NCBI GenBank assembly: GCA_043798995.1
Contig: JAZDOD010000008.1
Span: forward strand, 119,468 to 183,467
Length of the DNA: 64,000 nucleotides
Direction of reading: 5' to 3'
DNA from: a bacterium
GTDB taxonomy: Bacteria; Patescibacteriota; Patescibacteriia; JAACEG01; JAGUWE01
The notes under the pieces are model-generated. The model was given only the letters and a program-made list of their open reading frames with translations, was not told the DNA's origin and ran no database searches. This document shows, in pieces, positions 1,469 through 47,442 of this stretch (position 1 is its first letter; each line of letters opens with the position of its first letter). Both the position numbers and the translations under genes were made by a program.

Positions 1469-2035
1469 TTATTGCTCATAATAAATTTTACCGGAAAGCT
1501 CAACCGTCAAATTGCCAGAAGACTCGGTCGGTAAATAAAAATCAGATCTTGAGGTTGGGCCTGAGGCGATGTCACTGGCAGTCAGATTAACTAAACTCAC
1601 TATTAAATAGTAGTTTGTTCTGTCTAGTTCATTGATAAATTTGAGAATTTTATCAAACTCGCCGAATAAAGTTATTTTTACCGGCAAAAAACTTTCGCTG
1701 CCTTCATTTTGCAGAGTGCCGATATTTGGTATCTGCTCAATCTGATATTTATCCGCCAATATTTCAATTTTCTGAATAAAAGAGAGTTCATCACCTTTTT
1801 TAATAAAAATATCAGTTTTAGATAGTTCATTTTTGATTTTATTAAGATCGGTCAAACTTTCTTTGATATTATTAGTTTTTAATTTTTTGCCTTCAAGCGA
1901 GAAAAGCTCGTCGTTCATATCTGCATTTATCTTTTTAATTTCGCCGTAAAAAGGCCAAATGACAAAATAACAAAGACCGCCGATAATGGCTAAAAGAGGA
2001 ATAAGATAATAAATTGTGCTTTTAATTTTGGCCAT
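1469..2035 (-). CDS. PilO-like pilus assembly protein
   Basis: N-terminal TM followed by coiled-coil and a periplasmic domain, placed after the PilN-like and PilM genes. Confidence 0.45.
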   Translation of the reverse strand: MAKIKSTIYYLIPLLAIIGGLCYFVIWPFYGEIKKINADMNDELFSLEGKKLKTNNIKESLTDLNKIKNELSKTDIFIKKGDELSFIQKIEILADKYQIEQIPNIGTLQNEGSESFLPVKITLFGEFDKILKFINELDRTNYYLIVSLVNLTASDIASGPTSRSDFYLPTESSGNLTVELSGKIYYEQ

Positions 2036-2050: not shown

Positions 2051-2608
2051 TTAAAGATTAAAAACATCATTTTTTAGTTTGGCCATAAGCTGGAAATCAA
2101 TATTTTCTTTCTTGAGAAGATTACTGATCGGAAAGTCAACTTCACTAAAGCCGTTAGTTTGATTTAAATTAGTTTTAAGATCTAGGAGATCTTTTCTATT
2201 TTTAGCTCGGCCGTTGAGAGAAATCAGCCAGTAATAATTTTTATTTTCTTCTTTTTTTTCAATTTTAAGATTAGTCAGAAAAATATTTTCCGGCACAATT
2301 TTAATTAGAAAATCAATTTTTTCTGCCACGGGATTATAATCAGACTGAATTTTATTTATTAATTTAAGTTTATTATTTAATTCTTTAATATCCTGATTGA
2401 AACTGCTGAATTTTTTATTTCCATTTTCAGAAATTAATTGACTGTAGTTATTATTAAGAAGATATTTGCCAACACCAAGGCCCAAGCTGATAATAAAAAT
2501 CAAAAGAAAAATAAAAATAAAGAGTTTTTCAAAAAGCAGATGACTGCGTTTTTGTTCAATATGGATTCGCTGTTCAGCCGAAATTAGATTAAGATTAAGG
2601 TTAATCAT
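2051..2608 (-). CDS. PilN-like fimbrial assembly protein
   Basis: Short cytoplasmic N-terminus, one TM and a coiled-coil, immediately downstream of pilM. Confidence 0.45.
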   Translation of the reverse strand: MINLNLNLISAEQRIHIEQKRSHLLFEKLFIFIFLLIFIISLGLGVGKYLLNNNYSQLISENGNKKFSSFNQDIKELNNKLKLINKIQSDYNPVAEKIDFLIKIVPENIFLTNLKIEKKEENKNYYWLISLNGRAKNRKDLLDLKTNLNQTNGFSEVDFPISNLLKKENIDFQLMAKLKNDVFNL

Positions 2609-2616: not shown

Positions 2617-3711
2617 TTAGTAAATCAGATTTTTATCATGCACGCCCCTCAAGGCTAAGCCAAGCGCAGTAGTAAATTTAAGAGCCAAGCATTGATCGAA
2701 GGACTTATAAGTTCTGCCAATATTAACAAGGGGATTAGCTTTTTTGATATTTTTACCCAAAACAGTTTTTAGATTTTCTTCCAAGCCGCTTAAATTGGCT
2801 CCGCCTCCGCAAATGACAAGCTCGTTTATTTCTTGAGCTTCGGTAAAATGGTCTTTATAAAAGTTAATCGCTTCTTTTATTTTTTGGATTAAATGTTTGG
2901 TATTATCAGTCAATATTTCAGTTAAAATTGTCTGACATTCTTTATTTATACTACAAACAATTTTGGCTTTCTCGGCTTGTTCAAGAGAAATATTTAGGCG
3001 TTTGGCAATAGTTTCGGTTAAAATTTTGCCGGAAATCGGCAAACTGACGGTAAATTTTATATTATTCTGATCAAAAATAATAAGACTCGTTCTGACTCGG
3101 CCAAAGTCAATAATCATTTTTGCCCCGACATCTTGATTTTTATTGATCGGAAAAAGACTGCGGATGATTGCCATTGATTCAATTTCCAAAGCCACCGGTT
3201 CAAAACCGCAATATTTTAGCACCCCCAGATAATTATTAACTATGCTTTTGGGAGCAGCGCCAATCAGAATTTCAGTTGAGTTAGCGGTTTTACTAACTAC
3301 TTGCCAGTCCAGATATATTTCCTTGATTGGCAGGGGAATGTGTTCTTCGGTTTCGCGGCTGATTATCTCCGGAATTATTAACTCGCCTTTATCATATTTT
3401 TTTTCTTTAAGTTCCGAGCTTTCCGATTCAATTTTAATCCATTTAATAAATGTTTTCGGCTCAGGCAGAACCGAAATTACATTTTTGGTTTTAATTTTTT
3501 TGCCATTGATTTTCTTAAAAAGCAATTCCACACTTTTTTTGAATTGTTCCTGGTCTCGAATTTCGCCATGCTGAATACAGCCCTCCGGCAGATCTACGCT
3601 GCTAAAAGAAGTTAATTTAACAATTTTGCCGATTTTTTTTAGCTGAACTAATTTTAAAGTTAGTTCTCCAATATCCAGAGCAAAGGGCAAATTTTTTAAT
3701 ATTAAGGACAT
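2617..3711 (-). CDS. pilM: type IV pilus assembly protein PilM (actin-like ATPase fold)
   Basis: 364 aa with an FtsA/PilM-like fold and motifs (LVICGGGANLSGL, DIGELTLKLVQL), in operon context. Confidence 0.7.
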   Translation of the reverse strand: MSLILKNLPFALDIGELTLKLVQLKKIGKIVKLTSFSSVDLPEGCIQHGEIRDQEQFKKSVELLFKKINGKKIKTKNVISVLPEPKTFIKWIKIESESSELKEKKYDKGELIIPEIISRETEEHIPLPIKEIYLDWQVVSKTANSTEILIGAAPKSIVNNYLGVLKYCGFEPVALEIESMAIIRSLFPINKNQDVGAKMIIDFGRVRTSLIIFDQNNIKFTVSLPISGKILTETIAKRLNISLEQAEKAKIVCSINKECQTILTEILTDNTKHLIQKIKEAINFYKDHFTEAQEINELVICGGGANLSGLEENLKTVLGKNIKKANPLVNIGRTYKSFDQCLALKFTTALGLALRGVHDKNLIY

Positions 3712-3715: not shown

Positions 3716-5176
3716 TTAGGGATTAAGTTCGCGCCATGAAATAAAAGTATATTCGCCGGATGTAGGAAAGGAGGGCGGCGGACTAAAAGTTAAGTGACCA
3801 TCGTAGGTAATGGTTCGGTTTTGATAACCCGAGCAGTAAGTTTCTCCGCAACTCCAGCTAAAACCATAACGGTTGTAAGTTGCCAGCGAACCGTATAAAG
3901 CGATTGAGTTTCTTTCATAATAAGTTGAGCTGCAACTTGAAGTAAAATAATAGCGGCCGATTCTGCCACTTTTGGCCACCAGCGAAGCGTCAATTTCCAA
4001 ATTGTCGTCACTGTATAAACCAACGGTAATGTTGCGCTGGGCAATTAAACCCAAAACATCAGAGCCGTTTTTATTAGTATACAATAAATTATGATTGATG
4101 ATAATATCAGCATCGCCGCTAGCCAAAGGTTCTCGGGCCGCTACCAAAGTAAGGCGGCTATTATTAATTTGGCCGTCAACCCAAACCTTATCTTCAATAA
4201 AGATTATGCCATTAGCCGGCAGAGGTTCGCCTAATTGAGGATTGTTCATAGTTTGGGCAATGCCGTCGGTATCGGTACTGCCACAAGTGTCTGTAACCGT
4301 TTTTACTATATAAATATCTACGGTTTGATTGGAATTAAAGTGCAGCCAATAACCGCGTTTGTTGGATTTATCAAGATAGAGTCCGTTGTTTTTAGCCAAT
4401 GTTTTTAAATCAGCCAGATTAGTAGTAAAGCCGTTAAAATCAACTGTGGTTACAGGAAATTTTCGGCCGGCTTGAAAAACATCCGTTCTTTGGGGGACAG
4501 CGGCTGGTGGTTGCGGGTCTTGAGGAGCAGTATGAGTATGGACTCCGAATTCAGTTTGGCTGTCATCTGGATCAACATAAGTTTGTCTGGCGCTGGTAAC
4601 AATATTGTGTGCCACGCCGTCAAATCTAATGCCGCCATTGGAATGAATCGGGCCATAGGTTTGGGTGCCGCTGCCAAAACGCATATCGGCATTTGCCACC
4701 ACAGCATAGGCAGAGAGCGCCGGAATGCCGTATTGAGCCAGAATTATTCGCTTGATATTTGGATAACTCAAAAGCCAGCCGGTTGATTGAATTGAAACAA
4801 TGGTAGTGTTAGGCATAGGCGTGATAATTAAGCTGAATTGGCCGATGATGTTGCCCTGAGGGTCGCGAAAATCATGGACATAAGGGCCGGCTCCGCCGGT
4901 TCCGTCCTGAAAATCGTCTGGTTCGTGCGCTAAATGCCAGCGGTAATAATTAATGCCGGCTTCAGCCACATGAATCGCTTGGGCTTTGGCTACTTTGTAT
5001 TTATTCAACTTATACTGATAAACCACCAGCGAAAGCAATCCGCCGGCTAAAATGATGAAGATGGAGGTGAAAACGAGAAGGGAAACCAAGATAGCTCCTT
5101 GATTAATAACTTCTGACTTCTGACTTTTTCCGCCAGAGGCGGATCCGCCTTTGGCGGAGACTTTTGACTTTATCAT
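3716..5176 (-). CDS. PilX-like minor pilin / pilus-associated protein
   Basis: N-terminal QGAILVSLLVF hydrophobic helix resembling the PilX_N domain, with no Glu at position +5. A large Gly/Thr-rich extracellular domain follows. Confidence 0.4.
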   Translation of the reverse strand: MIKSKVSAKGGSASGGKSQKSEVINQGAILVSLLVFTSIFIILAGGLLSLVVYQYKLNKYKVAKAQAIHVAEAGINYYRWHLAHEPDDFQDGTGGAGPYVHDFRDPQGNIIGQFSLIITPMPNTTIVSIQSTGWLLSYPNIKRIILAQYGIPALSAYAVVANADMRFGSGTQTYGPIHSNGGIRFDGVAHNIVTSARQTYVDPDDSQTEFGVHTHTAPQDPQPPAAVPQRTDVFQAGRKFPVTTVDFNGFTTNLADLKTLAKNNGLYLDKSNKRGYWLHFNSNQTVDIYIVKTVTDTCGSTDTDGIAQTMNNPQLGEPLPANGIIFIEDKVWVDGQINNSRLTLVAAREPLASGDADIIINHNLLYTNKNGSDVLGLIAQRNITVGLYSDDNLEIDASLVAKSGRIGRYYFTSSCSSTYYERNSIALYGSLATYNRYGFSWSCGETYCSGYQNRTITYDGHLTFSPPPSFPTSGEYTFISWRELNP

Positions 5177-5778
5177 AAATTGTCTTTCAAATTTCTAATT
5201 TGAATATCGGTTTCTAAATTATATTGCTGGGGTGATTTGCCGGGCTTGATATCAACTTTAAGGTAAGCGTGGACTAATCTGATTAAATTTTTGTCAATTG
5301 GTTGAGTTAATTGGTTGTTGCTACCATCAAAATAAGTAAAGATCGGAGTTGTTAGATTATTGACATAGCCGGCAATAAGAGTAATAACCTCGTTTTGGAC
5401 AAGATATTCGGCCGGCGAGCCGGTTGGGTCAATCACCCCTTTATTTAAATCAGTGCCGTTTAAAAAATAACGGACCCGTTCGGCCGAGCCATCACCATCA
5501 ATGTCAGAATAAAAAGTCAGGTTCTGCGCACCGGCATCCTCAATTAAATAGTCGCCGCGGTCGCTGGCAATTGCTTCGCGGATTTCCTTGGTCATAACTT
5601 CCAAACCATCGCGGGCGCTTTTGACTTGATAATCCAATTCAGAGCCAAAAGTACTGATCCGATAACCCTGAATAAAAAATGCCGTTGCCATACCAACAAC
5701 CATAACAAAAATACCAAGACTGATTATCATTTCTAAAAGAGTAAATCCAGCTTGATTTTTTAAAATTTTTAAATTCAT
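5173..5778 (-). CDS. type IV prepilin-like pseudopilin (N-methylation motif)
   Basis: Class III signal KNQAG/FTLLEMIISLGIF. Confidence 0.7.
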   Translation of the reverse strand: MNLKILKNQAGFTLLEMIISLGIFVMVVGMATAFFIQGYRISTFGSELDYQVKSARDGLEVMTKEIREAIASDRGDYLIEDAGAQNLTFYSDIDGDGSAERVRYFLNGTDLNKGVIDPTGSPAEYLVQNEVITLIAGYVNNLTTPIFTYFDGSNNQLTQPIDKNLIRLVHAYLKVDIKPGKSPQQYNLETDIQIRNLKDNL

Positions 5779-7968
5779 TTAATTAAGGTTTAAATAAATT
5801 GTCTGGGAAGAATTAGGCAGGAGATTAATCGGTTGGACCGGATTACTTAATTTAATGGTATAACCGCCGGTAGTGGCAATGGTGTAAAGATCCCATTCCA
5901 TAGTATTTAAAAGCAGACGACCATCGCTGTCGGTTGAAAGACTGTTGTCGGAGTATTTATGAATATCCGGATCAGTGCCGATTAATTTAGCGCCGGTAAT
6001 AGCAAGAGGAACACTGCCGACATAAGTGATTTCCTGCGGCGCTTCAAACTTGGCAGCATAAATATTAAAATTATTATTGCGGTTATCTTGCCAGGTAACA
6101 TAAACAGTGCCGCTGGAATCAACAGCCAAACTGGCTGAATATTGGTCAGTGGCCGTATTATCAGTGTTGACTCTTAAATCCGACTCCCATTGCTTGACAC
6201 CATCCAGATTATATTTTTGGGCATAAACGTCGCGATTGCCTTGGCGTTCGTCAGTCCAGGCAAAATAAACAAAATTGCCGCTGACTATAATTGAGGAATA
6301 ATATTGATCAGTCGCAGTGCTGTCGGTATTAATTTTAATGTCCGAACCCCAGAGGTTGGTGCCGTCCGGGCTGTATTTTTGAGCGTAAATATTTTGATTG
6401 CCATCGCGCCAGTCAGTCCAGCTAAAATAGATGTTGCCATTTGAGTCAAAGTCAAAACTCGTAAAATTTTGTGCGGCCGTGCCCGAGTCGGTATTAATTT
6501 TTAAATCATTAGCCCAGAGTTTAGTGCCGGCTGAATCAAATTTTTGGGAATAAATATCCTGATTGCCAGCCCGACTGTCAGTCCAGGCGACATAGACATT
6601 GTTATCGCTGTCAATTTTAAGATAGGGGTTAATCTGGCAATTGCCCGGGCTGTCGCTCGTGGCTTTAACTTCAGCTGCCCAGCCATTATTGCCAGCGGGC
6701 GTGATTTTGTGAAGATAAATGTCGCCGCAATCATCACGATCATCCTGCCAGACAACATAGCAATTATTGGCGCCGTCAACATCAATAATGGGCAAAATCT
6801 GATCAGCTGAATTAGCGCCGGTATCAATTTTTTTAGAGCCAGACCAGAGATCATTGCCGTTAGCGTCCCTCTTGATTAAGAAAACATCCTGATTGCCATT
6901 AACATCATCGTTCCAGGCGTAATAAATATTATTTTGCGAATCTAAAGCCATGTCCGGATTAACCTGGTTAACGGCGCTGGAAACGCGCGCATCCGGGCTC
7001 CAGCCCGGCGTTTCATCAGTTTTATATTTTTGAGAATAAATTCTGGGTGAGTTAGCCGAATCGCGATAATCTTCCCAAGCAAAATACATATTGCCCAGAG
7101 AATCAATTTCCAAAGTCGGGTTATAATGAGAGGCGCCGGAGCTATCGGTGTTGATTTGCCAATTGTCAGGCAAAGCTTGGCGCATGGTATAAATTGTTAA
7201 ACTACTGACTAAATCAATGGCAAAACTAATGTCGGTTTTTTGGCCGGCAAAAACCGAAGCGTGGGGTTTGGTGGGATTGGGATTTTGTATTGTTCGATCA
7301 TAAGTTTGATCAGTGCTATAACCGGTTTTGGTGACAGTAACTTTATAGCTTTCAATTGAAGCCGGAGCGCCGGGAAAGATGGCATGGCCTTCGGCGTTGG
7401 TTAAAACGTCAATTAAAATTTGTGGATTGACAGCGGAATTTTCAATATGGACATTAGCGCCGTTAATTGGATTGCCGTTAGCATTAAAAACAGTAATGTA
7501 TAATGTGCCGCCGCCGAGATTAGTTTCAATGCCTTTGGGGGCAATATCAGAAATTATTGCAACCGAACTGCCTAAATAACTTTGCCAACTAACATTGATT
7601 CTGACGCGCTTGTAATCATTGCCTAATAAATCAGCAGGAACTCCGCCAACCGTGCCATCGAAAGGATCGTCAATATAAATAACTTGGGTAGAAACAGTGT
7701 AGGTAACGCCATTTCTGATTATTTGTTCAGTTTGCGCAATACTGCCTGACGGGATACCGCCCTGAGTGCCAACACTGTTGTAGGGAAGGTTGCGGATTCG
7801 TTCCATTTTTTCATTAGCCAGAGAAATAGCGCCGATTCTGGATTTATTGGTGCCGATTATTTTCAGGGCATAATCAAACATATTAAAAATTGCCAAAACC
7901 AAAAGACTGGCAACAAAAATAGTGATAAGAACCTCAATAAGAGTAAAGCCGTAATTTTTTTTTCTCAT
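5779..7968 (-). CDS. giant type IV pilin: prepilin N-terminus, CarboxypepD_reg-like Ig domain and a 7x PD40/TolB-like beta-propeller
   Basis: Prepilin motif YG/FTLIEVL. Seven repeats of about 48 aa matching Y[FV][AV]W.D.R.GN.[DN][IV]Y.QK[YF]...G..W..D..[IV]NTD. Confidence 0.7.
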   Translation of the reverse strand: MRKKNYGFTLIEVLITIFVASLLVLAIFNMFDYALKIIGTNKSRIGAISLANEKMERIRNLPYNSVGTQGGIPSGSIAQTEQIIRNGVTYTVSTQVIYIDDPFDGTVGGVPADLLGNDYKRVRINVSWQSYLGSSVAIISDIAPKGIETNLGGGTLYITVFNANGNPINGANVHIENSAVNPQILIDVLTNAEGHAIFPGAPASIESYKVTVTKTGYSTDQTYDRTIQNPNPTKPHASVFAGQKTDISFAIDLVSSLTIYTMRQALPDNWQINTDSSGASHYNPTLEIDSLGNMYFAWEDYRDSANSPRIYSQKYKTDETPGWSPDARVSSAVNQVNPDMALDSQNNIYYAWNDDVNGNQDVFLIKRDANGNDLWSGSKKIDTGANSADQILPIIDVDGANNCYVVWQDDRDDCGDIYLHKITPAGNNGWAAEVKATSDSPGNCQINPYLKIDSDNNVYVAWTDSRAGNQDIYSQKFDSAGTKLWANDLKINTDSGTAAQNFTSFDFDSNGNIYFSWTDWRDGNQNIYAQKYSPDGTNLWGSDIKINTDSTATDQYYSSIIVSGNFVYFAWTDERQGNRDVYAQKYNLDGVKQWESDLRVNTDNTATDQYSASLAVDSSGTVYVTWQDNRNNNFNIYAAKFEAPQEITYVGSVPLAITGAKLIGTDPDIHKYSDNSLSTDSDGRLLLNTMEWDLYTIATTGGYTIKLSNPVQPINLLPNSSQTIYLNLN

Positions 7969-8100
7969 TTTTATAAAATTTAAAATTAAAAATCAAATAT
8001 AAAAAATTTAAAACACATATTTAAAAATAAAAAAATAATTTTTGCATTTTTGGTTTGCATTTTTTGTTTTTGAAATTTTATATTTTATTTTTCAGTATTT

Positions 8101-9165
8101 TTATATTGCTTGCGTTAACGAATACATCGGCATGATGACAGCAATAGCCATGCCAGCCACGGCCACGCCCAAAATAAGAATTAATACCGGTTCAATTATT
8201 GAAGGCAAATTTTTCATAATTTGATCAATGTCGTTTTCATAAAATTCAGCCAACTCTTCTAAAACATTATCAAGACTGCCGGTTTGTTCGCCAACGAGAA
8301 TCATCTGGGTGACAACCGGCGGAAAAAGAGATCCATTTTTCTTTAGTAATTCTCCCAAAGAAATACCTTTGGTAACGCTGCGCGAAGCTTTAAGCACTTC
8401 TTCTTTGTATAAAACATTGCCTAAGATATTGGCCGTGATATCAAGAGTTTGCATAATCGGAATATCAGTTTTTAAAAGGGAAGAGAAAGTGCGGGAAAAG
8501 CGGGCTAAATTTATTTTTTTGATTATCGACGCAATAATAGGTAGTCGTAAAAGTATTGAATGAAAAATATATTTGCCGCGTTTGGTTGAAATTAATTTGA
8601 AGAAAAAATAAATTAACCCGATCAAGGCAATAATAACAACCAGATAATTTTGGATAACAAACTCGCTGGTCGCCATAAGAACCCGGGTTGGCAAAGGCAA
8701 AGTTACCTCCGCTTCTTTAAAGACAGCCGTAATTTTGGGAATGACAAAAACTATCATTAAAGTGCCAATGACAATCATGGCAAAAACTACCACGGCCGGA
8801 TAAATCATCGCGCCTTTGACCTTGGAACGAAGTTCATGATCTTTTTTCATCTGAATATAGATTCGGCGCAGGACATTTTCCAACTGGCCGCTGGCTTCCC
8901 CGGCTTTAATCATATTGACAAAAAGATTGTCAAAAACACGGTTGTATTTGGCCAAATGATTGGAAAGCGGTTCACCCTTTTCCACCCCTTGAGTAATATC
9001 AACAATGATTTCTTTAAATCGTTTGTTTTCGGTTTGAAGCGAAAGCGTTTTTAAAGCCTCGGCCAGTGAAATCCCTGCTTTAAGCATTACTTCTAAGTGC
9101 TGGACGAAAAAAATTTTCTCTTTGACAGGAATTCGTTTAAACTTTTTTAAAAAATTTAATTGCAT
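8101..9165 (-). CDS. pilC: type IV pilus inner-membrane platform protein PilC (GspF family)
   Basis: T2SS-F domain motifs, 3 TM segments, 354 aa. Confidence 0.8.
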   Translation of the reverse strand: MQLNFLKKFKRIPVKEKIFFVQHLEVMLKAGISLAEALKTLSLQTENKRFKEIIVDITQGVEKGEPLSNHLAKYNRVFDNLFVNMIKAGEASGQLENVLRRIYIQMKKDHELRSKVKGAMIYPAVVVFAMIVIGTLMIVFVIPKITAVFKEAEVTLPLPTRVLMATSEFVIQNYLVVIIALIGLIYFFFKLISTKRGKYIFHSILLRLPIIASIIKKINLARFSRTFSSLLKTDIPIMQTLDITANILGNVLYKEEVLKASRSVTKGISLGELLKKNGSLFPPVVTQMILVGEQTGSLDNVLEELAEFYENDIDQIMKNLPSIIEPVLILILGVAVAGMAIAVIMPMYSLTQAI

Positions 9166-18996: not shown

Positions 18997-19962
18997 ATGC
19001 CGAGATGTTTTTACTTTCCTAAAACACGGAGCAAGCAATTGTCGAAGGGATTCAACTCTTCTTTATCAAACGTGATTGATGATCTAAACTGGCGTTTCGA
19101 CAAGACACAACGAACTAAAGCAGAAGAGAAGCACTTTAAACACGACAGAAAAAATTTGCACGAGAAGATAAAAGCAGAAACAGGAGGAGATACGATCAAA
19201 AAAACCATAGATGCGACTAACGAAATATTAAAAAAGTTAAGAATAGATGAAATCGACATAAGCCTATTTAAAACTTTGACTCCATATGATAGTGCCGAAC
19301 TCGTTTTCCCTTTTGATGGTTTTGAACTACCAATTGGACAAGGTGGCTCAGGTATAGAAATGGCCGTTGCTATTGCGTTTTTAGAGTCATTAGCAAAGAT
19401 TTCAAAAGAAGACATCGTTATTGTAATTGATGAGCCAGAATTGCACCTACACCCAACACTTCAAGAGAAGATTTTTAATCATTTCAAAGAAATATCGAGC
19501 GAAATTCAGATTATCGTTTCAACTCATTCGCCCTTTTTGTTTAGGAATGTTTATCAAAACAGTAAAGTTCAGTTGCTTTTAACAAAAAATGAAAGTGATA
19601 AAATCCTAATCCAAGACGCCAGGTCTTCTGAATTTGGGTTGTTAAATTGGAGTCCATCGTGGGGAGAAATATGTTATTTTTCTTACGATTTGCCGACAAT
19701 TGAATTCCACGATGATTTATATGCGAGTTTGCAGGACAAAAACGGAACGGAAAGTATCGCTGCAACAGAAACTTGGTTGATAGCTAATGGGCAAGCAAAG
19801 GAAATTAAATGGAAAGACGACAAAGACATTCAACAAGAAGAAACTTTAATGACCTATATAAGAAACAGAATCCATCACGGCGATAATCAAAATAGGCCAA
19901 TGTATTCTCCCGAACAGTTGAGAGATTCAATAGCGCGAATGATTACTTTACTAAAACTATGA
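18997..19962 (+). CDS. ABC/AAA_21-type ATPase, C-terminal part (signature, Walker B, H-loop) with an HEPN-like RNRIHH tail
   Basis: GQGGSGIEMAVAIAF, IVIVIDEPELHLHP and IIVSTHSP motifs. It is in a different frame from 18513-18953. Confidence 0.55.
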   Translation: MPRCFYFPKTRSKQLSKGFNSSLSNVIDDLNWRFDKTQRTKAEEKHFKHDRKNLHEKIKAETGGDTIKKTIDATNEILKKLRIDEIDISLFKTLTPYDSAELVFPFDGFELPIGQGGSGIEMAVAIAFLESLAKISKEDIVIVIDEPELHLHPTLQEKIFNHFKEISSEIQIIVSTHSPFLFRNVYQNSKVQLLLTKNESDKILIQDARSSEFGLLNWSPSWGEICYFSYDLPTIEFHDDLYASLQDKNGTESIAATETWLIANGQAKEIKWKDDKDIQQEETLMTYIRNRIHHGDNQNRPMYSPEQLRDSIARMITLLKL

Positions 19963-19993
19963 ACGAATTTTCTGAAGACAAATTAACCCCCGT
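19963..19993 (+). other. duplicated remnant of the hsdR 5' end (MNEFSEDKL...)
   Basis: ATGAACGAATTTTCTGAAGACAAATTAA here matches ATGAGCGAGTTTTCCGAAGACAAATTAA at 21665. It overlaps the upstream stop in an ATGA arrangement. Confidence 0.6.
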
Positions 19994-20230
19994 CTTGTGC
20001 GAAATACCATAACTAGCCAAGTTGTGGTGGTAAATTGAGCAAACAATCAAGCGTATAGAAACTGTCTAAAATGTGTCTAAATTAGACACTTGCAAAATAC
20101 TATACAAGAAAACACCGGTTTTTACGCTTAAAATAAGGGCAAAATAGGCAATGGCGCGTCTCTTGTAATGTATAGTTGACAAGAGATGGGCGTTTCTTGT
20201 AAACTTAAATAATCAAACAATACAAGAGTT

Positions 20231-21661
20231 ATGAACGAAGAAAGGAAAGAAAAATTATACCAATTTGTGCGCGACCAAATAGCACAGGGCGTTTTTCGCA
20301 CTCGTGCCTATGTTTTCAACGACCGTGGAGAGCGTAATCCACAAAGGAGTATGTTTTTGCGCATACAAAAATATGTCCATGATTTTATGGGCGGCAATGC
20401 TTCCGTGCGCTGGTTGGTCATGCCGGGTCTTCGCGGGTCCGGCAAGACAACTCTTTTGGCACAGTTATATCACGATACGGATGTACCAATAGAACGCAAA
20501 TTATTCTTGTCGGTGGATCAAGTTACCCAGACATTCGGCGCCTCACTGCAAGAAATTATTCAGGTATACGAAGAAGCGGTTGGTGGTTCGTTTGAGCGGC
20601 TGGAAGAACCGGTATTTTTATTTCTTGATGAAGTGCAATATGATCGTCGCTGGGCCGGATTTTTAAAAACCGTATATGACCGAACTCGGAAAGTTTTTAT
20701 TACTGCGACTGGTTCTTCTGCTCTGATGTTCAATATAAACGCGGATGTTGCTCGTCGAGCTGTATCGGAAAAATTGTATCCTATGAGTTTTACGGAATTT
20801 ATGAAAATCAAACACAATAAATATGAAGAAAAAGGATTGGGGCGAGAATTAAGACAAGCATTGCTGGATTCCAAATCAGCGCAAGAAGTTTATGATCAAC
20901 TTATATCATGCGGGGAAACAGTGAGGCACTATTGGCTGAATGTTGAACGCCAAGAAATAACGCACTATATCAATTACGGCACATTGCCGTATATGGTTGC
21001 TCTGAAAAATGAAGCTCTAGTATACGACCAAATTAAAAAATCGCTTGAGCGTGTTATTTCGGTTGATATTCCCCAAATTGGCAGATTTCGGCCAGATATT
21101 GCTTCAAAATTCCCGATGCTCTTATATGCGATAGCTGATTCAGAGCAGCTTAGTCTAAATAATCTTTCGCGCGTTATGGAGATTGGGAGACCTACACTTA
21201 TGCACATGCTTGATGTTTTGGAGCAGACGGAAACAATAATGCGTGTATATCCGCATGGATCCCATCGATCACAAGTAAGAAAACCATCAAAATATTTATT
21301 CACGTCCCCCGCATTTCGCGCGATGTATTTTAAATTCATCGGTAGCACGCAACGACAAGAAATATACGAAGGCAAGTTGTTGGAAGATATTGTCGGATTG
21401 TATTTGGGGCGGCTTTGCGAACAGCGATCAATATCCCTTACTTATGATTCTGCCGCTGGCGGTGCGGATTTTATCGTGCGAGATAACAATGCCCTTATCG
21501 CAATTGAAGTGGGTCGTGGTCAAAAAGGATTTGAACAGGTGGCACGCACCGCTAAAAAGGTCAAAGCAAAATATGGATTGGTTATTTCTGCGTCAGAATT
21601 GAAAATAGATGTAAAACATTCTGCCGTTTCAGTTCCGTTAGAATTTTTTCTACTTATATAA
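20231..21661 (+). CDS. AAA+ ATPase of the DUF4143/COG1373 family
   Basis: Walker A GLRGSGKTTLL, Walker B FLFLDEVQY and a DUF4143-like C-terminal region. Confidence 0.75.
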   Translation: MNEERKEKLYQFVRDQIAQGVFRTRAYVFNDRGERNPQRSMFLRIQKYVHDFMGGNASVRWLVMPGLRGSGKTTLLAQLYHDTDVPIERKLFLSVDQVTQTFGASLQEIIQVYEEAVGGSFERLEEPVFLFLDEVQYDRRWAGFLKTVYDRTRKVFITATGSSALMFNINADVARRAVSEKLYPMSFTEFMKIKHNKYEEKGLGRELRQALLDSKSAQEVYDQLISCGETVRHYWLNVERQEITHYINYGTLPYMVALKNEALVYDQIKKSLERVISVDIPQIGRFRPDIASKFPMLLYAIADSEQLSLNNLSRVMEIGRPTLMHMLDVLEQTETIMRVYPHGSHRSQVRKPSKYLFTSPAFRAMYFKFIGSTQRQEIYEGKLLEDIVGLYLGRLCEQRSISLTYDSAAGGADFIVRDNNALIAIEVGRGQKGFEQVARTAKKVKAKYGLVISASELKIDVKHSAVSVPLEFFLLI

Positions 21662-21664
21662 AAT

Positions 21665-24600
21665 ATGAGCGAGTTTTCCGAAGACAAATTAATAGAGCAA
21701 ACTGCTATCAAATTTTTCGGCGAGCTTTGGTCCGCTTCCGCTAAAGCTACAGCGGACAAGGGCGCTGAGAATTTCGTGAATGCTTATTCAGACGAGGGTG
21801 ACGCACGACTCGGACGAGAAAACCAGGGGCAGGTTGTTTTGATGAAATATTTAAAACCAGCACTTGAACGATTCAACCCTGATGTATCTACCGAGGGCTT
21901 AAACCTCGCGATCGACGAGATTATAAAAGACCGCTCGGCGATGAGCATGGTGAATGCGAACCGTGAAGTATGGCAACTACTTCGGGACGGCGTAAGGGTT
22001 GAGACGGAAAATGAAAAAGGCGAACAACAGACCGAGACAGTAAAGATTATTGATTTTGAAAATCCAAAAGAAAATCACTTTATGCTCGTATCCCAGCTTT
22101 GGGTAACCGGCGAATTGCATAAACGCCGTCCCGACTTAATTGGCTTTGTAAACGGCTTGCCGCTTGTGCTGATTGAGCTGAAAGCATCGCACAAAAATCT
22201 TCGCAATGCCTACCAGCAAAACATTCGGGATTACAAAGACACGATTCCGCAGCTTTTTTGGTATAACGCTTTTATAATTATTTCCAATGGTATTGAAAGC
22301 AAAGTTGGCACAATTACCGGCGCGTATGAACATTTCAACGAATGGAAGAAAATCAAGGACGAAAAAGAGGTTGGAAAAGTAAGTTTGGAAACGGTAATCA
22401 AGGGCACCTGCGAACCAGCGCGGCTTTTGGATATTATTGAAAACTTTATTCTTTTTGACGACTCCCGCGGAGAACGCGCCAAAGCGATTGCCCGATATTT
22501 TCAATTTTTCGGAGTGAACCGTGCTTTTCTGCAAGTTCAAAATCGGGAAAAAAATAAGGGCCGCCTCGGTGTTTTCTGGCACACGCAAGGGTCCGGCAAA
22601 TCATATTCAATGGTTTTCTTGTCTCAAAAAGTGTTTCGTAAGCTGACCGGAAATTTTACTTTTGTCGTGGTCACAGACCGCAAGGAACTTGATAGGCAAA
22701 TATACAAGACCTTTGCCGCCTGTGGCGCTGTTTACGAAAACGAAGTCCATGCCGATTCCGTAGAACATCTTAAGCAACTGCTTAAAGAAGACCACCGCCA
22801 TGTTTTTACGCTTATCCATAAATTTGCCGAACCAAAAGAATTATCAAACAGAAGCGATGTGATTGTGATGGCCGATGAAGCGCATCGCACGCAATACGAC
22901 CGCATGGCGGCAAATATGCGCATTGCGTTGCCTAAGGCATCATTTCTTGGCTTTACCGGCACGCCCTTGATGGCTAGCGGTGAAGAAAAAACCCGAGAAG
23001 CTTTCGGTGATTATGTCTCAACATACAACTTCGCGCAGTCAGTAAAAGACGGAGCTACGGTTCCCCTTTATTACGAAAATCGTGTTCCAAAACTGGAGAA
23101 TGTAAATCCGGATATTCAGAAAGATTTGGAACGGGTAATGAATTTTTACGATCTTGCGCCGGAAGAAGAGGAAAAACTGGAACAAGAATTTTCAACTTTC
23201 TATCATCTGATAACCCGCGAGGATCGCTTGAATAAAGTCGCAGAAGATATTGTCGCGCACTTCACCGCTCGAGGATATAACGGAAAAGCAATGGTTGTTT
23301 CTATTGATAAGAAAACGGCTATTCGAATGCACGCCAAAGTCAAAGAACAAATGCAACGCCATTTGGCAAAATTGAATATAGCTTTATCCAAAGCTGCTGA
23401 CGAACATGAAAAAGAAAAGATTCGGCAAATCATAGAACAATACGAAGGAATTGATATGGCAGTAGTGGTAAGCCAAGGCCAGAATGAAATCGCCGACATG
23501 GAAGAATTTGAGATTGATATGAGGCCGCTTAGAGCTCGTATGCAAAATGAAGATTTGGAAACCAAATTTAAAGATCCCGACAGCAACCTACGCATTGTCT
23601 TTGTTTGTGCAATGTGGATTACCGGTTTTGATGTTCTCAACCTTTCAACGCTCTACCTTGATAAGCCGCTTAAGAATCACACACTGATGCAGACCATCGC
23701 CCGCGCTAATCGAGTATATCCGGGTAAAACAAACGGCCTTATTGTTGACTACATCGGCGTATTTAGAAATATTCAAAGAGCCCTCGCAATTTATGCTACT
23801 CCGGAGAGCGGCGCGTCAATCGACGACATTATTAAAGAAAAAGAAGCACTCGTTGAGTTGTTGGTTTCAACCGCCACACAGACGAGAGGATTCTTAAAAA
23901 AGCTTGATCTTGATGTTGATAAATTGCTGAAAGCAAAAGACGCAGAAAAGATACGCCTTGTTGATGTATTCACAAATCGTATTTTGCAGGACGAACAGAC
24001 GAAGAAGAGATATCTTGATTTTGCGTCAGATGTCTACCAACTTTACAAAGCGGTATTGCCCGAGCCCAAGGCGGAAGATTATTATCAAGAAGTTATGGCC
24101 TTTAAAGTGATCGCTTCTCGTATTAAAGAAGTCATTGAGGAAGAAGCTGATGTCAGTCAAGTAAAAAAAGACCTTGAGGATTTGCTTGACCGTTCTATAA
24201 AGGCGGGAGAGTTTGTAATCAAGGAGCCAAAACTGAAAGATTTAAGTCATATTGACTTTGAAGCGCTCCGGAAATTTTTTGACGACACTGAAAACAAAAA
24301 CATTGCCGCTGAAAGTTTAAGTGCCGAGCTTGAAGAAAAAATCAAAGAAATGGCGCGGAAAAATAAGATCCGCAAACATTTTCTTGATCGTCTTAATTTA
24401 TTGATTAACGAGTACAATTCCGGCTCTCGCGATCTCGACTCATTTTTTGAAGAACTTCTCGCACTCGCAAAAGAATTAAGCGAGGAAGATCGCCGGGCGA
24501 TAAAAGAAAACCTCACGGAGGAGGAATTGGCGATATTCGATCTTCTTGCGAAGGAAAATCTTAACCCCGATGAAGTGGAGAAAGTGAAAAAAGTTGCGCT

Positions 24601-24820
24601 TGAGTTGTTGGCTAAACTTAAAGCAGAAAAGTTTGTCTTGGATTGGAAGCGGAAAGAGGAAACGCGGGCTGATGTGAAAATAACAATCCGGGATATGCTA
24701 TATGATAATTTGCCCGAGCCAGCGTACTCCGAACAAGATTGCGAAGACCGGACACAAAAAGTTTATTTCCATGTTTACGACAATTATGTGGACGCAAAAA
24801 TTAATGTTTACGCGCAGTAG
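21665..24820 (+). CDS. hsdR: type I restriction enzyme R subunit HsdR
   Basis: N-terminal PD-(D/E)xK motif (VLIELKAS), helicase motif I (HTQGSGKS), DEAH box (VIVMADEAHRTQY) and later helicase motifs. Confidence 0.9.
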   Translation: MSEFSEDKLIEQTAIKFFGELWSASAKATADKGAENFVNAYSDEGDARLGRENQGQVVLMKYLKPALERFNPDVSTEGLNLAIDEIIKDRSAMSMVNANREVWQLLRDGVRVETENEKGEQQTETVKIIDFENPKENHFMLVSQLWVTGELHKRRPDLIGFVNGLPLVLIELKASHKNLRNAYQQNIRDYKDTIPQLFWYNAFIIISNGIESKVGTITGAYEHFNEWKKIKDEKEVGKVSLETVIKGTCEPARLLDIIENFILFDDSRGERAKAIARYFQFFGVNRAFLQVQNREKNKGRLGVFWHTQGSGKSYSMVFLSQKVFRKLTGNFTFVVVTDRKELDRQIYKTFAACGAVYENEVHADSVEHLKQLLKEDHRHVFTLIHKFAEPKELSNRSDVIVMADEAHRTQYDRMAANMRIALPKASFLGFTGTPLMASGEEKTREAFGDYVSTYNFAQSVKDGATVPLYYENRVPKLENVNPDIQKDLERVMNFYDLAPEEEEKLEQEFSTFYHLITREDRLNKVAEDIVAHFTARGYNGKAMVVSIDKKTAIRMHAKVKEQMQRHLAKLNIALSKAADEHEKEKIRQIIEQYEGIDMAVVVSQGQNEIADMEEFEIDMRPLRARMQNEDLETKFKDPDSNLRIVFVCAMWITGFDVLNLSTLYLDKPLKNHTLMQTIARANRVYPGKTNGLIVDYIGVFRNIQRALAIYATPESGASIDDIIKEKEALVELLVSTATQTRGFLKKLDLDVDKLLKAKDAEKIRLVDVFTNRILQDEQTKKRYLDFASDVYQLYKAVLPEPKAEDYYQEVMAFKVIASRIKEVIEEEADVSQVKKDLEDLLDRSIKAGEFVIKEPKLKDLSHIDFEALRKFFDDTENKNIAAESLSAELEEKIKEMARKNKIRKHFLDRLNLLINEYNSGSRDLDSFFEELLALAKELSEEDRRAIKENLTEEELAIFDLLAKENLNPDEVEKVKKVALELLAKLKAEKFVLDWKRKEETRADVKITIRDMLYDNLPEPAYSEQDCEDRTQKVYFHVYDNYVDAKINVYAQ

Positions 24821-29111: not shown

Positions 29112-31607
29112 ATGCCTAAAAAACAAAAAGATAAAACTAAAAAGAAAGTGAAGAAATTAAGAAAGAAAGTTAAACTTGTTTCTAAAAAGCCCGCCCAGCG
29201 AGTAAAGCGGGCTATTAAAGTTAAAAAAGCCACAGGGAAACCATTAAAAAATGAAAATAAAATTGCCCGGATTTTTAAAAGAGAAAGCAAAATTGAAGAG
29301 CCCGAACTATTAGATTTGCCGGCCGAAACGCCAGCAGAAGAAAAAGAAGAAACAAAACAGAGTTATATTTCACCCCATCTTATTAATTTAAAAGAACCGG
29401 CCAAAGAAAAAGAAGAGCCCACCACGGATGATTTTAGAAAAACTCGGCCGGAAAAACCACGCAAGATTAGTTTTTTAAAAATTAATCTCATAAGAAAAAT
29501 TAATAAAGAGCCACGATTGACTTTTGTTTTTAGCCGAACTTTGGTGGCGGAACTGGCGATTTTTTTGTTTGTTTCTTTTGTCTTGGTTTCAATCCTTTTT
29601 TCTTTTAATTTTTTACAAAATCTAAAAGAAGGACTGCTTACAACTCGCGGCAAAGTTTTAGGCGAAGCTTCAACTGCCGTGGAACATCTTTTAAGCGGCA
29701 GCCAGGAACTTTTAAACTACAACCCCAGCAGCGCTTCCTATCAGTTTTCCCAGGCCGATGAATATTTTAATCAAGCTGGAAAAGAACTTGAAGGAATTAA
29801 TAGTTTAATTAAAGAGACGGCTAAAATTATTCCTTACGATCAGGGCGCGCTTGAGTCAGCTGATTCATTGGTTGAGGCCGGTAAAAATATCACTCTGGCC
29901 GCTTTGTATCTACCTGAAATATTAAATATCATCAATCGGCCGAACAAAGATTTTGGTTACGAAAATAGAGAATCAATTATTATTAATAATGAATCTTTAG
30001 TCGTTGGTCATTTACAGAAAAATTTTTATCAAAAATTAGAAGATTTAAATCTTAATTTAGCTTTAGCAGCTGACAGATTAACCATAGCCAATAATAATTT
30101 AACCGTAGTTAAAAGCGAAATTATTCCCGAAAATAAAAGAGAAGAATTTCTGCGCCTTAAAGAACAGTTAATGGAAGTTGAGGATAAATTTTTCCGCCTG
30201 AGCGAACTAACTGAAGCCTGGCTTGATATTTTAGGCCGAAAAGAATTAAAAAAATATTTGGTGATTTTTCAAAATAATAACGAATTGCGCTCAACAGGCG
30301 GCTTTATGGGCAGTTTTGCTTTAGTCACCGTTGACAAGGGTTTAATTAAGAAAGTTGAATTTCCCGAAGGCGGCAGTTATGACATCCAGGGCCAGCTTTT
30401 AGAGCGCGTTAAACCGCCCTCGGCGCTTAATTTAATTAATTCGCGCTGGTATTTTCACGATGCCAATTGGTGGCCGGATTTTCCGACCACGGCCCGGAAA
30501 CTCATTTGGTTTTATGAAAAAAGCGGCGGCCCGACTCCCGATGGCGTGGTGGCGATTACGGCCGATATAATGAAAGACCTATTGCAATTTACCGGTCCGG
30601 TTGAAGTGCCTGACTATCAAAAAACCATTACGGCCGAGAATTTTTATGAAGAAACGCAAAGAGCCGTTGAATTAGAATATGACAAAGAGGCCAATCGTCC
30701 AAAAAAATTTATGGTAGCTCTGGCTCTTGAATTTTTTAAAAAATTTACCCAGGATGAGAAAAATTTTCAGAATTTTTTCCAACTTTCGGATAAAATTTTT
30801 TCCCAAAAAACGATCCAATTTTACTTTACTAATGAAAAGACCGAAAAAGTTTTTACCTATTTTAATTTAACAGGCCAAATTAAAAATTTGCCAGGCGATT
30901 ATTTGGCAATTATCAATACCAATTTGCGCGGCGGTAAGACCGATAATTTTATTAAAGAAAAACTTTATTTGGAAACTGAGATTGATAATAATGGTCAAAT
31001 TATAAACAAATTGACTCTGGAAAGGACTCATACCGGGGACCCAAATAATTTTTTTGGAAAAACAGTCAATCTTGATTATTTAAGAATTTATGCGCCAAAA
31101 GGAGCTAAACTTCTGAGCGCTTCGGGTTTTAATCCGCCGGAAGCCAAAAGCTATTATTCAGAAGATGAAACATTGGCGCTTGATGCGGATTTAGCCCGTC
31201 TTGAAAATGAGGTGACCATTGATCCCCCCAGCGGCACCAAAATTTATGATCAGTTTGGTAAAACTGTTTTTGCCAACTGGGTTCAGGTAGCGCCGGGTGA
31301 AACTTCAAAAATTATTTTGACTTATCAGCTGCCTTTTACTTTAGACAAGAGATCGGAAAAAGAAGAGAAAAATTATTATGATTTAATTCTGGGAAAACTA
31401 TTAGGCAAAGAAAATATTGATTCTCAGGAAGATTTTCGGACTTATACTTTATTGATCCAAAAACAGGCCGGTGATAATAATTTAGTGTTTAATCAGAAGA
31501 TTAATTTACCGAATAATTGGCAGCTTATTTGGCAGAATAAAGAATTGCCGGCTGAAATTAATCTGCTTCAAGATAATTTTTACGGCGTAATTTATCAGGT
31601 TAAATAA
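29112..31607 (+). CDS. large Lys-rich membrane/surface protein, DUF4012-like
   Basis: K-rich N-terminus, a TM segment and an LRSTGGFMGSFALV core block. The DUF4012 assignment is from memory of that family. Confidence 0.45.
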   Translation: MPKKQKDKTKKKVKKLRKKVKLVSKKPAQRVKRAIKVKKATGKPLKNENKIARIFKRESKIEEPELLDLPAETPAEEKEETKQSYISPHLINLKEPAKEKEEPTTDDFRKTRPEKPRKISFLKINLIRKINKEPRLTFVFSRTLVAELAIFLFVSFVLVSILFSFNFLQNLKEGLLTTRGKVLGEASTAVEHLLSGSQELLNYNPSSASYQFSQADEYFNQAGKELEGINSLIKETAKIIPYDQGALESADSLVEAGKNITLAALYLPEILNIINRPNKDFGYENRESIIINNESLVVGHLQKNFYQKLEDLNLNLALAADRLTIANNNLTVVKSEIIPENKREEFLRLKEQLMEVEDKFFRLSELTEAWLDILGRKELKKYLVIFQNNNELRSTGGFMGSFALVTVDKGLIKKVEFPEGGSYDIQGQLLERVKPPSALNLINSRWYFHDANWWPDFPTTARKLIWFYEKSGGPTPDGVVAITADIMKDLLQFTGPVEVPDYQKTITAENFYEETQRAVELEYDKEANRPKKFMVALALEFFKKFTQDEKNFQNFFQLSDKIFSQKTIQFYFTNEKTEKVFTYFNLTGQIKNLPGDYLAIINTNLRGGKTDNFIKEKLYLETEIDNNGQIINKLTLERTHTGDPNNFFGKTVNLDYLRIYAPKGAKLLSASGFNPPEAKSYYSEDETLALDADLARLENEVTIDPPSGTKIYDQFGKTVFANWVQVAPGETSKIILTYQLPFTLDKRSEKEEKNYYDLILGKLLGKENIDSQEDFRTYTLLIQKQAGDNNLVFNQKINLPNNWQLIWQNKELPAEINLLQDNFYGVIYQVK

Positions 31608-31613
31608 TATAAT

Positions 31614-47413: not shown

Positions 47414-47442
47414 CAGATCCCGAAACAAGTTCGGGATGACAG
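47414..47442. repeat. hairpin-repeat unit whose ATGACA end supplies the secF start codon
   Basis: CAGATCCCGAAacaagTTCGGGATGACAG, with the secF ATG at 47436. Confidence 0.65.

Follow-up and report, generated by a model that had tools for sequence, protein, structure and literature searches.

The 64-kb stretch of DNA analysed here (the window) contains an operon for a type IV pilus-type assembly machinery, which reads in the order PilB, PilC, a 729-aa modular pilin, a 201-aa pilin, a 486-aa ComZ/GspK-like pilin, PilM, PilN and PilO, and comprises the following genes:

9260..10990, minus strand: PilB-type assembly ATPase, 576 aa (Pfam T2SSE 1.8e-130 and MshEN; TIGR02538 1.9e-175)
8101..9165, minus strand: PilC/GspF platform protein, 354 aa counted from the first ATG (Pfam T2SSF 1e-55), with homologs of 360-410 aa
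5779..7968, minus strand: modular pilin, 729 aa, ATG start; the interval includes the stop codon, which the start of the next pilin gene abuts
5173..5778, minus strand: second minor pilin, 201 aa, class III signal AG/FTLLE (Pfam N_methyl 2.9e-7)
3716..5176, minus strand: third pilin-like protein, 486 aa, GspK/PilX-type with a beta-solenoid (ComZ-like)
2617..3711, minus strand: PilM, 364 aa (Pfam PilM_2 6.7e-41; TIGR01175 4.3e-51)
2051..2608, minus strand: PilN, 185 aa (Pfam PilN 2.7e-7)
1469..2035, minus strand: PilO-like protein, 188 aa

The PilO-like protein has no Pfam match of its own. It shows 28-34% identity to the syntenic open reading frames of three related loci (L001, L002 and L005), and those of L001 and L002 carry the PilO domain PF04350. 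The N-terminal helix of the 486-aa protein is devoid of the conserved Glu at position +5.

Relatives of the 729-aa protein come almost entirely from Patescibacteria/CPR, and the same arrangement of pilC, pilins and pilM-pilN-pilO recurs in the related loci. In 39 of 42 such loci the modular pilin gene is followed directly by a homolog of the 201-aa pilin, and the set of three pilins (modular, 201-aa type and ComZ/GspK-like) is present in 38; three of the remaining four are cut by contig ends. The three-pilin set is conserved across Patescibacteria. It resembles the GspI-GspJ-GspK and PilV-PilW-PilX sets and the ComZ-PilA2 locus of Thermus, where three consecutive pilin genes likewise end with a GspK/ComZ-like protein lacking Glu5. 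Unlike GspI and PilV, which are small and consist of a single domain, the first pilin here has 729 residues, and its similarity to PilV/GspI is weak.

Among all open reading frames in the window with 100 aa or more, the search did not find pilD, pilT or a major pilin, and a six-frame regular-expression scan for class III signals returned two pilins of this operon and no others. Processing by PilD and the type of filament are assumed, because a prepilin peptidase, a major pilin and PilT are missing from the window. The scan of the operon for promoters and terminators gave nothing reliable above background.

The modular pilin gene corresponds to the 729-aa frame at 5779-7968 described in the original prediction, which had not given its strand. 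All the motifs quoted there, namely the leader MRKKNYG/FTLIEVL, TLYITVFNANGNPINGANVHIE, SYKVTVTKTGYS and the repeat pattern, occur in the protein. In the AlphaFold2 model (pLDDT 90.3, pTM 0.71) and in profile searches it is divided as follows:

7948..7968, minus strand: class III (prepilin) leader peptide MRKKNYG, residues 1-7 (Pfam N_methyl and TIGR02532)
7792..7947, minus strand: mature N-terminal hydrophobic extended alpha-helix with F+1 and E+5, residues 8-59 (modelled helix 10-59)
7519..7791, minus strand: small pilin head, residues 60-150, a four-stranded antiparallel sheet (modelled strands 80-85, 88-99, 119-128 and 134-142)
7177..7518, minus strand: CarboxypepD_reg-type beta-sandwich, residues 151-264 (Pfam PF13620)
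6019..7176, minus strand: seven-bladed beta-propeller cassette, SBBP/CylK-like, residues 265-650, built of seven repeats of 54-55 aa
5782..6018, minus strand: C-terminal beta-sandwich, termed C-dom, residues 651-729 (79-80 aa; modelled strands 654-728)

The succession of pilin, CarboxypepD_reg domain and propeller had been foreseen correctly, but the propeller is an inserted cassette and not the C-terminal appendage it was taken for. The earlier list of domains ended there and missed the additional beta-sandwich at residues 651-729.

The prepilin leader is as canonical as proposed. Pfam N_methyl covers residues 2-28 with 29 bits (cutoff 21.2) and TIGR02532 scores 21.5 against a cutoff of 16.3. 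Cleavage is predicted after Gly7, at the slash in MRKKNYG/FTLIEVLITIFVASLLVLAIF, leaving a mature protein of 722 aa. As is typical of type IV pilins, the leader ends in Gly and is followed by a hydrophobic residue at +1, Glu at +5 and a hydrophobic run of roughly 20 residues. In the aligned homologs, Gly occurs at -1 in 49 of 50 and Glu at +5 in 47 of 52. The AlphaFold2 prediction shows the pilin fold, an extended helix followed by an antiparallel-sheet head, with pLDDT mostly 83-92 through residue 142, and as modelled, residues 8-59 are the helix that assembles into the filament core. The head bears an invariant acidic loop, IDDPFDG...D....DYK (D100, D101, D104, G105, D113, D118, Y119, K120). 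Residues 6-60 give sub-threshold matches to the PilV, GspI and ComGE models. The PilV model TIGR02523 is confined to these residues (E 9.2e-5, 22.9 bits against a cutoff of 52.2), and among 54 homologs such sub-threshold matches are found for PilV in 38, ComGE in 42 and GspI (TIGR01707) in 20.

The CarboxypepD_reg-like domain named in the original prediction is recognized by Pfam at residues 156-228 (34.5 bits, cutoff 32.3), and PF13620 matches 53 of the 54 homologs. Judged by sequence and model, the protein thus resembles type IV pilins and bears both a CarboxypepD_reg domain and a propeller of seven blades. As modelled, it is a modular pilin in the sense of Raynaud et al. 2021 (PMC8179133), a pilin module with at least one domain that is not pilus-specific, because the CarboxypepD_reg domain scores above the Pfam cutoff and the propeller is modelled with seven blades.

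The structure prediction that had been suggested as a check of the fold was run, and AlphaFold2 folds the seven repeats as a seven-bladed beta-propeller with pLDDT 90. The repeat unit is 54-55 aa (45 aa in the last one) rather than about 48 aa, with the motif Q-x7-D-x2-GN-x-Y-x2-W-x-D-x-R-x-GN-x-D-I-Y-x-QK-x4-G-x3-W. Its proposed assignment to the PD40/TolB type had to be abandoned: PD40 (PF07676) gives no match on the isolated propeller even at E<=10 and matches one of 54 family members, while the TolB models match five of 54, weakly. The nearest models are those of SBBP-repeat propellers, that is PF06739, TIGR04275 and the Leptospira LipL53 family. TIGR04275 (2.1e-12; 54 of 54 homologs) and the LipL53 SBBP model (2.3e-16; 21 of 54) both match the protein below their curated cutoffs, and Pfam SBBP stays under threshold (E 7.3; 6 of 54). 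In a search of the PDB the single protein retrieved no match, and CylK was found by the family profile only, at E=1.4e-9. The cassette is modelled with seven four-stranded blades and is homologous to CylK, a solved member of this kind of propeller.

Across 54 orthologs the conserved residues of the propeller are those of the repeated scaffold motif, with a single blade-specific conserved residue, and the sequence-level comparison reveals no conserved His or Cys. Catalytic residues of the BNR_4/PL25, GH145 or PL42 type conserved on one face were likewise not found at the sequence level in these orthologs. Since only the scaffold motif is conserved, with no His or Cys and one blade-specific residue, the propeller probably serves for binding rather than catalysis.

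The position of the propeller is best understood from relatives with other inserts, to which similarity ends at residues 259-264. The pilin module and the CarboxypepD_reg sandwich make up the conserved part of the family, the N-module. In the basal family members, of about 440 aa, a C-dom homolog follows 5-17 aa past the N-module with no insert between them, and such insert-free forms account for 47 of 150 family representatives. Other relatives carry inserts of about 150, 325, 390 or 700-1050 aa at one shared insertion point. The same operon slot can be filled by a protein with a DUF2341 insert or with a much longer insert, and DUF2341, beta-helix and lectin-like cassettes alternate with the propeller at one site. 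The SBBP/CylK-like propeller is carried by about a quarter of the representatives. As far as sequence and model indicate, it is one of several cassettes that occupy a constant position, with a conserved beta-sandwich domain on either side. Clustering of the propeller-bearing forms by N-module similarity gives a weak signal, mixed at about 50% identity.

The protein can be compared with the modular type IV pilins, whose prototype, PilB of S. sanguinis, combines a pilin with a vWA module (PMC8179133). In these proteins, too, the pilin part is small and has a class III signal, and it bears a bulky module for display on the filament. The catalogue of modular pilins lists the architecture IPR012902 + PF13620 as the third most common, with 66 proteins, and includes candidate-phyla bacteria among the representative species of its 15 commonest architectures, but the propeller was not recognised there (PMC8179133). 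The present protein, known here from its sequence and model, differs in that its module is inserted between two beta-sandwiches instead of simply being appended.

Another counterpart is PilX2 of the saccharibacterium Nanosynbacter lyticus TM7x, likewise a minor pilin with a seven-bladed propeller from a type IV pilus of Patescibacteria and proposed to be the tip adhesin; when it is deleted, host binding falls to 4.6% of host cells, from 10.6% (PMC11623550). The propeller of PilX2 is C-terminal and made of RCC1 repeats, and the protein, named after PilX, has no predicted PilD signal peptide (PMC11623550). Set against this published description, the protein studied here has a canonical signal peptide, the first (PilV/GspI-like) slot, an SBBP/CylK-like propeller, and CarboxypepD_reg and C-terminal sandwiches. 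The PilY1/PilC adhesins of type IVa pili also combine a seven-bladed propeller, beside a variable module, with a tip complex of minor pilins (PMC8179133). The comparison with them that had been proposed did not hold, as neither PilY1 nor Neisseria_PilC is matched in the Pfam and NCBIfam scans and the protein is itself a pilin. In PilY1, which is not a pilin, the propeller is the constant part and serves as the carrier docking onto the minor pilins; here the pilin does the carrying, and what varies is its cargo, the propeller.

The interpretation preferred here, with a probability of about 60%, is that the 729-aa protein belongs to a type IV pilus of Patescibacteria as a modular minor pilin, taking the PilV/GspI slot of the tip complex and presenting a propeller that binds a ligand. 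It would be cleaved after Gly7 by a prepilin peptidase whose gene would lie elsewhere. The 201-aa pilin and the ComZ/GspK-like cap lacking Glu5 would then join it in a three-pilin priming complex, in which it would occupy a position like that of GspI/PilV. This complex would start filament assembly on PilC and end up at the tip of the pilus. The CarboxypepD_reg domain and the C-terminal sandwich would form a stalk and the propeller an exposed ligand-binding head with surface loops that vary between lineages and a conserved scaffold, whose blade junctions may hold Ca2+ like those of CylK. The likeliest ligand would be a glycan or protein on the surface of a host or partner cell, and the cassette would therefore set the specificity of attachment.

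Bulky modular pilins were argued to fit only at the pilus tip (PMC8179133; PMC6561018), and a tip location of the present protein is plausible because of its size and its position among minor pilins. A role as adhesin can reasonably be inferred, and the halved host binding after deletion of PilX2 is a precedent for it. A tip heterotrimer with GspJ-like and GspK-like partners is suggested by gene order and by the GspK/ComZ-like fold of the third gene product, and the sub-threshold N-terminal matches and the gene order make the PilV/GspI slot a tentative assignment.

Points that count against this model are the lack of a prepilin peptidase, a major pilin and PilT in the window, the ComZ-like neighbour, and the enzymes (CylK, GH145, PL42 and PL25) among the best structural neighbours. 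The ComZ-like neighbour hints at DNA uptake rather than host attachment, in which case the pilus would be of the competence type, its three-pilin tip would be a DNA receptor built around the ComZ-like protein, and the propeller would help to capture DNA or macromolecular nutrients. This is considered rather unlikely, as a ComZ-like fold is no proof of DNA binding, such beta-solenoids being also ice-binding or adhesin folds, and a cassette site that varies between lineages is better explained by varied cell-surface ligands than by DNA. The roles in DNA uptake and in host attachment are not mutually exclusive. A catalytic role of the propeller, as a polysaccharide lyase, a hydrolase or another enzyme that the pilus tip would bring up to cleave or alter the surface polymer of a partner, is very improbable. 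The top Foldseek matches are indeed carbohydrate-active seven-bladed propellers (GH145, PL42, PL24/PL25 and sialidases, E about 1e-10), BNR_4, the ulvan-lyase domain, matches 15 of 54 homologs and GH43 nine, and the closest solved relative, CylK, is an enzyme. However, the matched enzymes share 10-14% sequence identity with the protein, and each is a generic seven-bladed fold. CylK works in biosynthesis in the cytoplasm; its active site requires a second domain, an N-terminal beta-roll that the present protein lacks, and it has other residues in place of the W-x-D-x-R of the propeller repeats. The catalytic reading was down-weighted because the propeller has no asymmetric conserved site: no His, Cys or blade-specific residue conserved in the family is able to build one.

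Core minor pilins are required for pilus assembly in other systems, and the protein might act in priming only, the propeller being a bulky spacer or cap that plays a passive part and binds no ligand specifically. The head does appear dispensable for the conserved function, because about a third of the family representatives have no insert. An inert role is nevertheless unlikely for a well-folded domain of ~390 aa under purifying selection (41% mean identity across orthologs), one that is swapped with the DUF2341, beta-helix and lectin-like cassettes, and very little credence is given to it. Class III signal peptides are also shared with T2SS pseudopilins and archaeal sugar-binding proteins, which leaves an improbable arrangement in which the protein is not part of an extended pilus and its pilin-like N-terminus is an anchor, in the membrane or in a short pseudopilus like that of the T2SS or the archaeal bindosome, for substrate capture. 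The ATPase and platform proteins of the operon score nearly as high on the GspE and GspF models as on those of PilB and PilC, and neither the operon nor the window holds a major pilin gene. On the other hand, the operon includes PilM, PilN and PilO and is conserved as one of the T4P type, and direct observation has revealed pili on cultivated Patescibacteria (PMC11623550).

The insertion point may even be a site for exchangeable "receptor-binding cassettes", in analogy to the receptor-binding proteins of phages. Propeller, DUF2341, beta-helix, lectin-like and other modules would then be traded between lineages, directing the pilus tip to new host surfaces, and the propeller would bind glycans multivalently and be stabilised by Ca2+. 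This is a tentative proposal, more doubtful than the tip minor pilin with a binding head. If it were true, the type of cassette could predict the host range of uncultivated Patescibacteria from their genomes.

Modular pilins, including those with the N_methyl + PF13620 architecture, and a propeller-bearing minor pilin that Saccharibacteria need for host binding are already published, and the protein leaves the current picture of type IV pili unchanged; it extends the modular-pilin concept and the PilX2 result from Saccharibacteria to other CPR lineages. To our knowledge, almost none of the ultrasmall episymbiotic Patescibacteria have been grown and their recognition of hosts is largely unknown. 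What is defined here is a phylum-wide three-pilin set, the exact insertion point of variable heads and one common head, the SBBP/CylK-like propeller. Together, the set, the insertion point and the head provide expressible candidates for determinants of host specificity and a genomic marker to be correlated with host co-occurrence.

The gene at 5779-7968 (minus strand) belongs to a pilus operon and encodes a modular, probably minor pilin, the first member of a conserved trio. Its ORF starts with ATG, codes for 729 residues and has a G+C content of 42.5% versus 37.7% for the window; its translation contains every motif quoted in the original prediction. The canonical prepilin leader reported there is borne out: MRKKNYG/FTLIEVL is a class III signal, which scores 29 bits with Pfam N_methyl (cutoff 21.2) and lies above cutoff for TIGR02532. 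Among 54 aligned full-length homologs, 49 of 50 have Gly at -1 and 47 of 52 have Glu at +5. The proposed CarboxypepD_reg domain is matched by Pfam at residues 156-228, with 34.5 bits against a gathering score of 32.3, and is present in 53 of the 54 homologs. There are indeed seven tandem repeats (residues 278-650, 35% mean pairwise identity), but their period is 54-55 residues and not about 48.

An AlphaFold2 model built with the 54-sequence alignment (mean pLDDT 90.3, pTM 0.71) contains the following elements:

Residues 10-59: alpha-helix
To residue ~142: four-stranded pilin head
Residues 154-263: beta-sandwich
Residues 281-641: seven blades of 3-4 strands each
Residues 654-728: additional beta-sandwich, missing from the original prediction

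The seven-bladed propeller, for which structure prediction had been named as the check, is thus recovered in the model. The top Foldseek ranks are GH145, PL42, sialidases, PL24/PL25 lyases and one lectin (E ~1e-10, identity 10-14%). The pilin head carries an acidic loop, IDDPFDG...D....DYK (residues 100-125; window 7594-7671, minus strand), with the invariant residues D100, D101, D104, G105, D113, D118, Y119 and K120. It is kept in all architectures of the modular-pilin family, is the lowest-confidence region of the model (pLDDT 70-72) and looks like a putative metal-binding (Ca2+) site.

The operon is read on the minus strand in this order:

9260-10990, minus: PilB
8101-9165, minus: PilC
5779-7968, minus: modular pilin
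5173-5778, minus: canonical pilin, 201 aa
3716-5176, minus: 486-aa protein without a Pfam match
2617-3711, minus: PilM
2051-2608, minus: PilN
1469-2035, minus: PilO-like ORF
1169-1459, minus: 96-aa ORF

GspK is a pilin lacking Glu5. The 486-aa protein resembles it, as Glu+5 is not conserved in the N-terminal helix of the homolog consensus. It has more than 3400 homologs at ~50% identity, some of which carry the name "PilX N-terminal domain", and is a ComZ/GspK-like partner of the modular pilin. ComZ, a GspK-like pilin into which a beta-solenoid is inserted, has been argued to cap the competence pilus and to bind DNA (PMC6561018). Six-frame translation of the window yields only the operon's two canonical class III signals, and no pilD, pilT or major pilin gene was found across the whole 64 kb.

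The gap between pilC and the modular pilin gene (7969-8100, 132 nt) is very A+T-rich, with one weak promoter-like match (8025-7996) and no obvious Shine-Dalgarno sequence upstream of the ATG. This spacing is smaller elsewhere: among related loci with listed called genes, the two genes overlap in L001 and lie 2-30 nt apart in L002-L005. An inverted repeat of 15 pairs (9 G-C) at 5127-5160 sits right after the ATGA overlap of the 201-aa pilin and 486-aa genes, within the first 50 nt of the latter, where it encodes the low-complexity, low-confidence N-terminal stretch SAKGGSASGGKS. This hairpin may serve translational coupling or regulation; alternatively, the real start of the 486-aa gene may lie further downstream.

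An identical protein is encoded by an NCBI MAG, on a contig of 203 kb. The modular pilin has hundreds of relatives, named, where a name is given, Falkowbacteria, Buchananbacteria or "Patescibacteria group". The closest species-representative locus, L006 (Patescibacteria isolate DeMMO5_21), is 75-86% identical to the window over PilB, PilC, the modular pilin and both other pilins, 68% over PilM and 59% over PilN. Of 42 related loci, 38 have homologs of both the 201-aa pilin and the ComZ/GspK-like protein directly downstream of the modular pilin; contig ends interrupt three of the remaining four. Parcubacteria-type loci retain the collinear PilB-PilC-trio-PilMNO order, while Woesebacteria and Gottesmanbacteria loci keep the trio with PilM upstream and PilC-PilB downstream, both on the opposite strand. 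Several TPA-assembled MAGs titled "uncultured Gammaproteobacteria" or "Pseudomonadales" (L007, L009, L017, L018, L020, L024, L028, L030, L039) bear a Patescibacteria-type pilus operon, with N-terminal modules 34-52% identical; these titles look like taxonomic mislabels.

Within this family the insertion point is fixed, and the propeller is a cassette that occupies it. By BLAST, relatives with other architectures match the N-terminal part only over residues 1 to ~262 (the pilin and CarboxypepD_reg module), at ~50% identity, and the last 79 residues, the C-terminal beta-sandwich, are likewise conserved. The commonest forms, of ~440 aa, consist of the N-terminal module, 5-17 residues, the C-terminal domain and an ~87-aa tail, which matches the CarboxypepD_reg portion of the N-terminal module profile. 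An exhaustive HMM search with this module gave 752 cluster representatives at E<=1e-30, and the best 150 of these 752 were sorted by architecture:

47/150: basal form, without insert
21/150: insert of ~150 aa
10/150: insert of 270-360 aa without propeller, a size range that includes DUF2341 proteins
34/150: complete propeller, insert of ~390 aa or more
12/150: C-terminal extension
16/150: C-terminal domain undetected, mostly truncated proteins
10/150: other forms

In this set, 32 of the 34 propeller forms stop directly after the C-terminal domain, without a tail. This is one side of a strong family-wide co-variation (P0241-P0377; loci L007-L042), the other being that non-propeller forms nearly always retain the ~87-aa tail, which resembles a second CarboxypepD_reg. 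The same operon slot is occupied elsewhere by DUF2341-insert proteins or by one with a 728-aa insert. Propeller and non-propeller forms are not cleanly separated by similarity of the N-terminal module, and the modules closest to that of the protein described here (53% identity) belong to non-propeller proteins; at this divergence, the mixed sequence similarities are no more than a hint of repeated gain, loss or exchange of the cassette.

The PD40/TolB-type label given to the propeller fails. With the propeller searched alone, Pfam PD40 gives no match up to E<=10, and it matches 1 of 54 homologs; TolB models are marginal (E 0.091 for the protein described here; 5/54 homologs). The repeats instead match TIGR04275 "beta_prop_Msarc" in all 54 homologs (best 8e-23, below the curated cutoff) and the Leptospira SBBP LipL53 model (2.3e-16 for the protein described here; 21/54, below the curated cutoff), together with Pfam BNR_4 (15/54), GH43 (9/54) and SBBP (6/54), all below curated cutoffs. 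A PDB search with the single sequence gave no match, while the family profile found CylK as the sole propeller match by sequence (E 1.4e-9), along with generic pilin N-termini. On account of these matches, the seven-bladed propeller is termed SBBP/CylK-like; the analysis shows its fold and its kinship with CylK, with the Pfam SBBP match staying below its curated cutoff. The same propeller type, at 32% identity across residues 269-645 of the modular pilin, occurs in a 952-aa non-pilin (P0097, JGI) that bears a Por_Secre_tail domain for type IX secretion; the cassette therefore circulates outside pilins too.

Across 54 orthologs, conservation in the propeller is confined to the scaffold motif that recurs in each repeat (Q; W-x-D-x-R; D-I-Y-x-QK; G-x3-W-x2-D), with no conserved His or Cys and a single conserved blade-specific residue, E433. 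Such a pattern speaks against one asymmetric catalytic site and is compatible with variable-loop recognition or with repeated, lectin-like sites. Each blade junction of CylK has a bound Ca2+ (PMC8916777), and by analogy the conserved Asp and Asn may bind it here.

Elsewhere in the window, SecD (572 aa, 44767-46485, plus strand), followed by SecF (47436-48413), has a PPIC-type peptidyl-prolyl isomerase insert (Rotamase, residues 175-263) that separates its first periplasmic segment from the P1 head. It is unusual for a translocon accessory protein to be fused with a chaperone-like domain in this way. A type I restriction-modification locus (16230-24820, plus strand) comprises an HsdM-HsdS fusion in a single 759-aa ORF and HsdR (21665-24820), separated by an AAA_14/DUF4143 ATPase and an AAA_15/AbiEii-like ATPase in two ORFs (18513-18953, 18997-19962), the latter gene being probably disrupted. 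A typical toxin-antitoxin module (14726-15752, plus strand) consists of a nucleotidyltransferase (MNT) gene overlapping a HEPN gene and is adjoined by a RadC-like gene (13861-14670). After a GT4 glycosyltransferase, adjacent large DUF4012 (831 aa) and DUF11-repeat (651 aa) proteins (29112-33569, plus strand) are probable surface proteins; in L004 a DUF4012 gene is also near the pilus operon. An rve-family integrase (IS element; 51264-52322, plus strand) lies upstream of the S11-S4-RpoA ribosomal cluster, and a 534-aa Memo-like and PGA_cap fusion (62390-63994, minus strand) is at the window end.

The definition of modular pilins comes from Raynaud et al. 2021, in whose catalogue IPR012902 with PF13620 is the third commonest architecture (66 proteins), and the representative species for the 15 commonest architectures include candidate-phyla bacteria (PMC8179133). 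Kinship with PilY1 is rejected, and matches to PilV/GspI are below threshold. The minor pilin PilX2 of Saccharibacteria TM7x has a seven-bladed RCC1-type propeller, and deleting this pilin cuts host binding from 10.6% of host cells to 4.6% (PMC11623550). The protein described here differs from PilX2 in its SBBP/CylK-like propeller class, its canonical signal peptide, its position as the first pilin of the trio and the internal insertion of its propeller.

In the proposed mechanism, PilD would cleave the prepilin leader and the three pilins would assemble as a priming complex of the GspI-J-K kind, topped by the Glu5-less 486-aa protein. The modular pilin would end up at the pilus tip because the shaft has no room for a subunit of 722 aa, an argument made for modular pilins and ComZ (PMC8179133, PMC6561018). 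There, the propeller would serve as an exposed binding head upon a beta-sandwich stalk.
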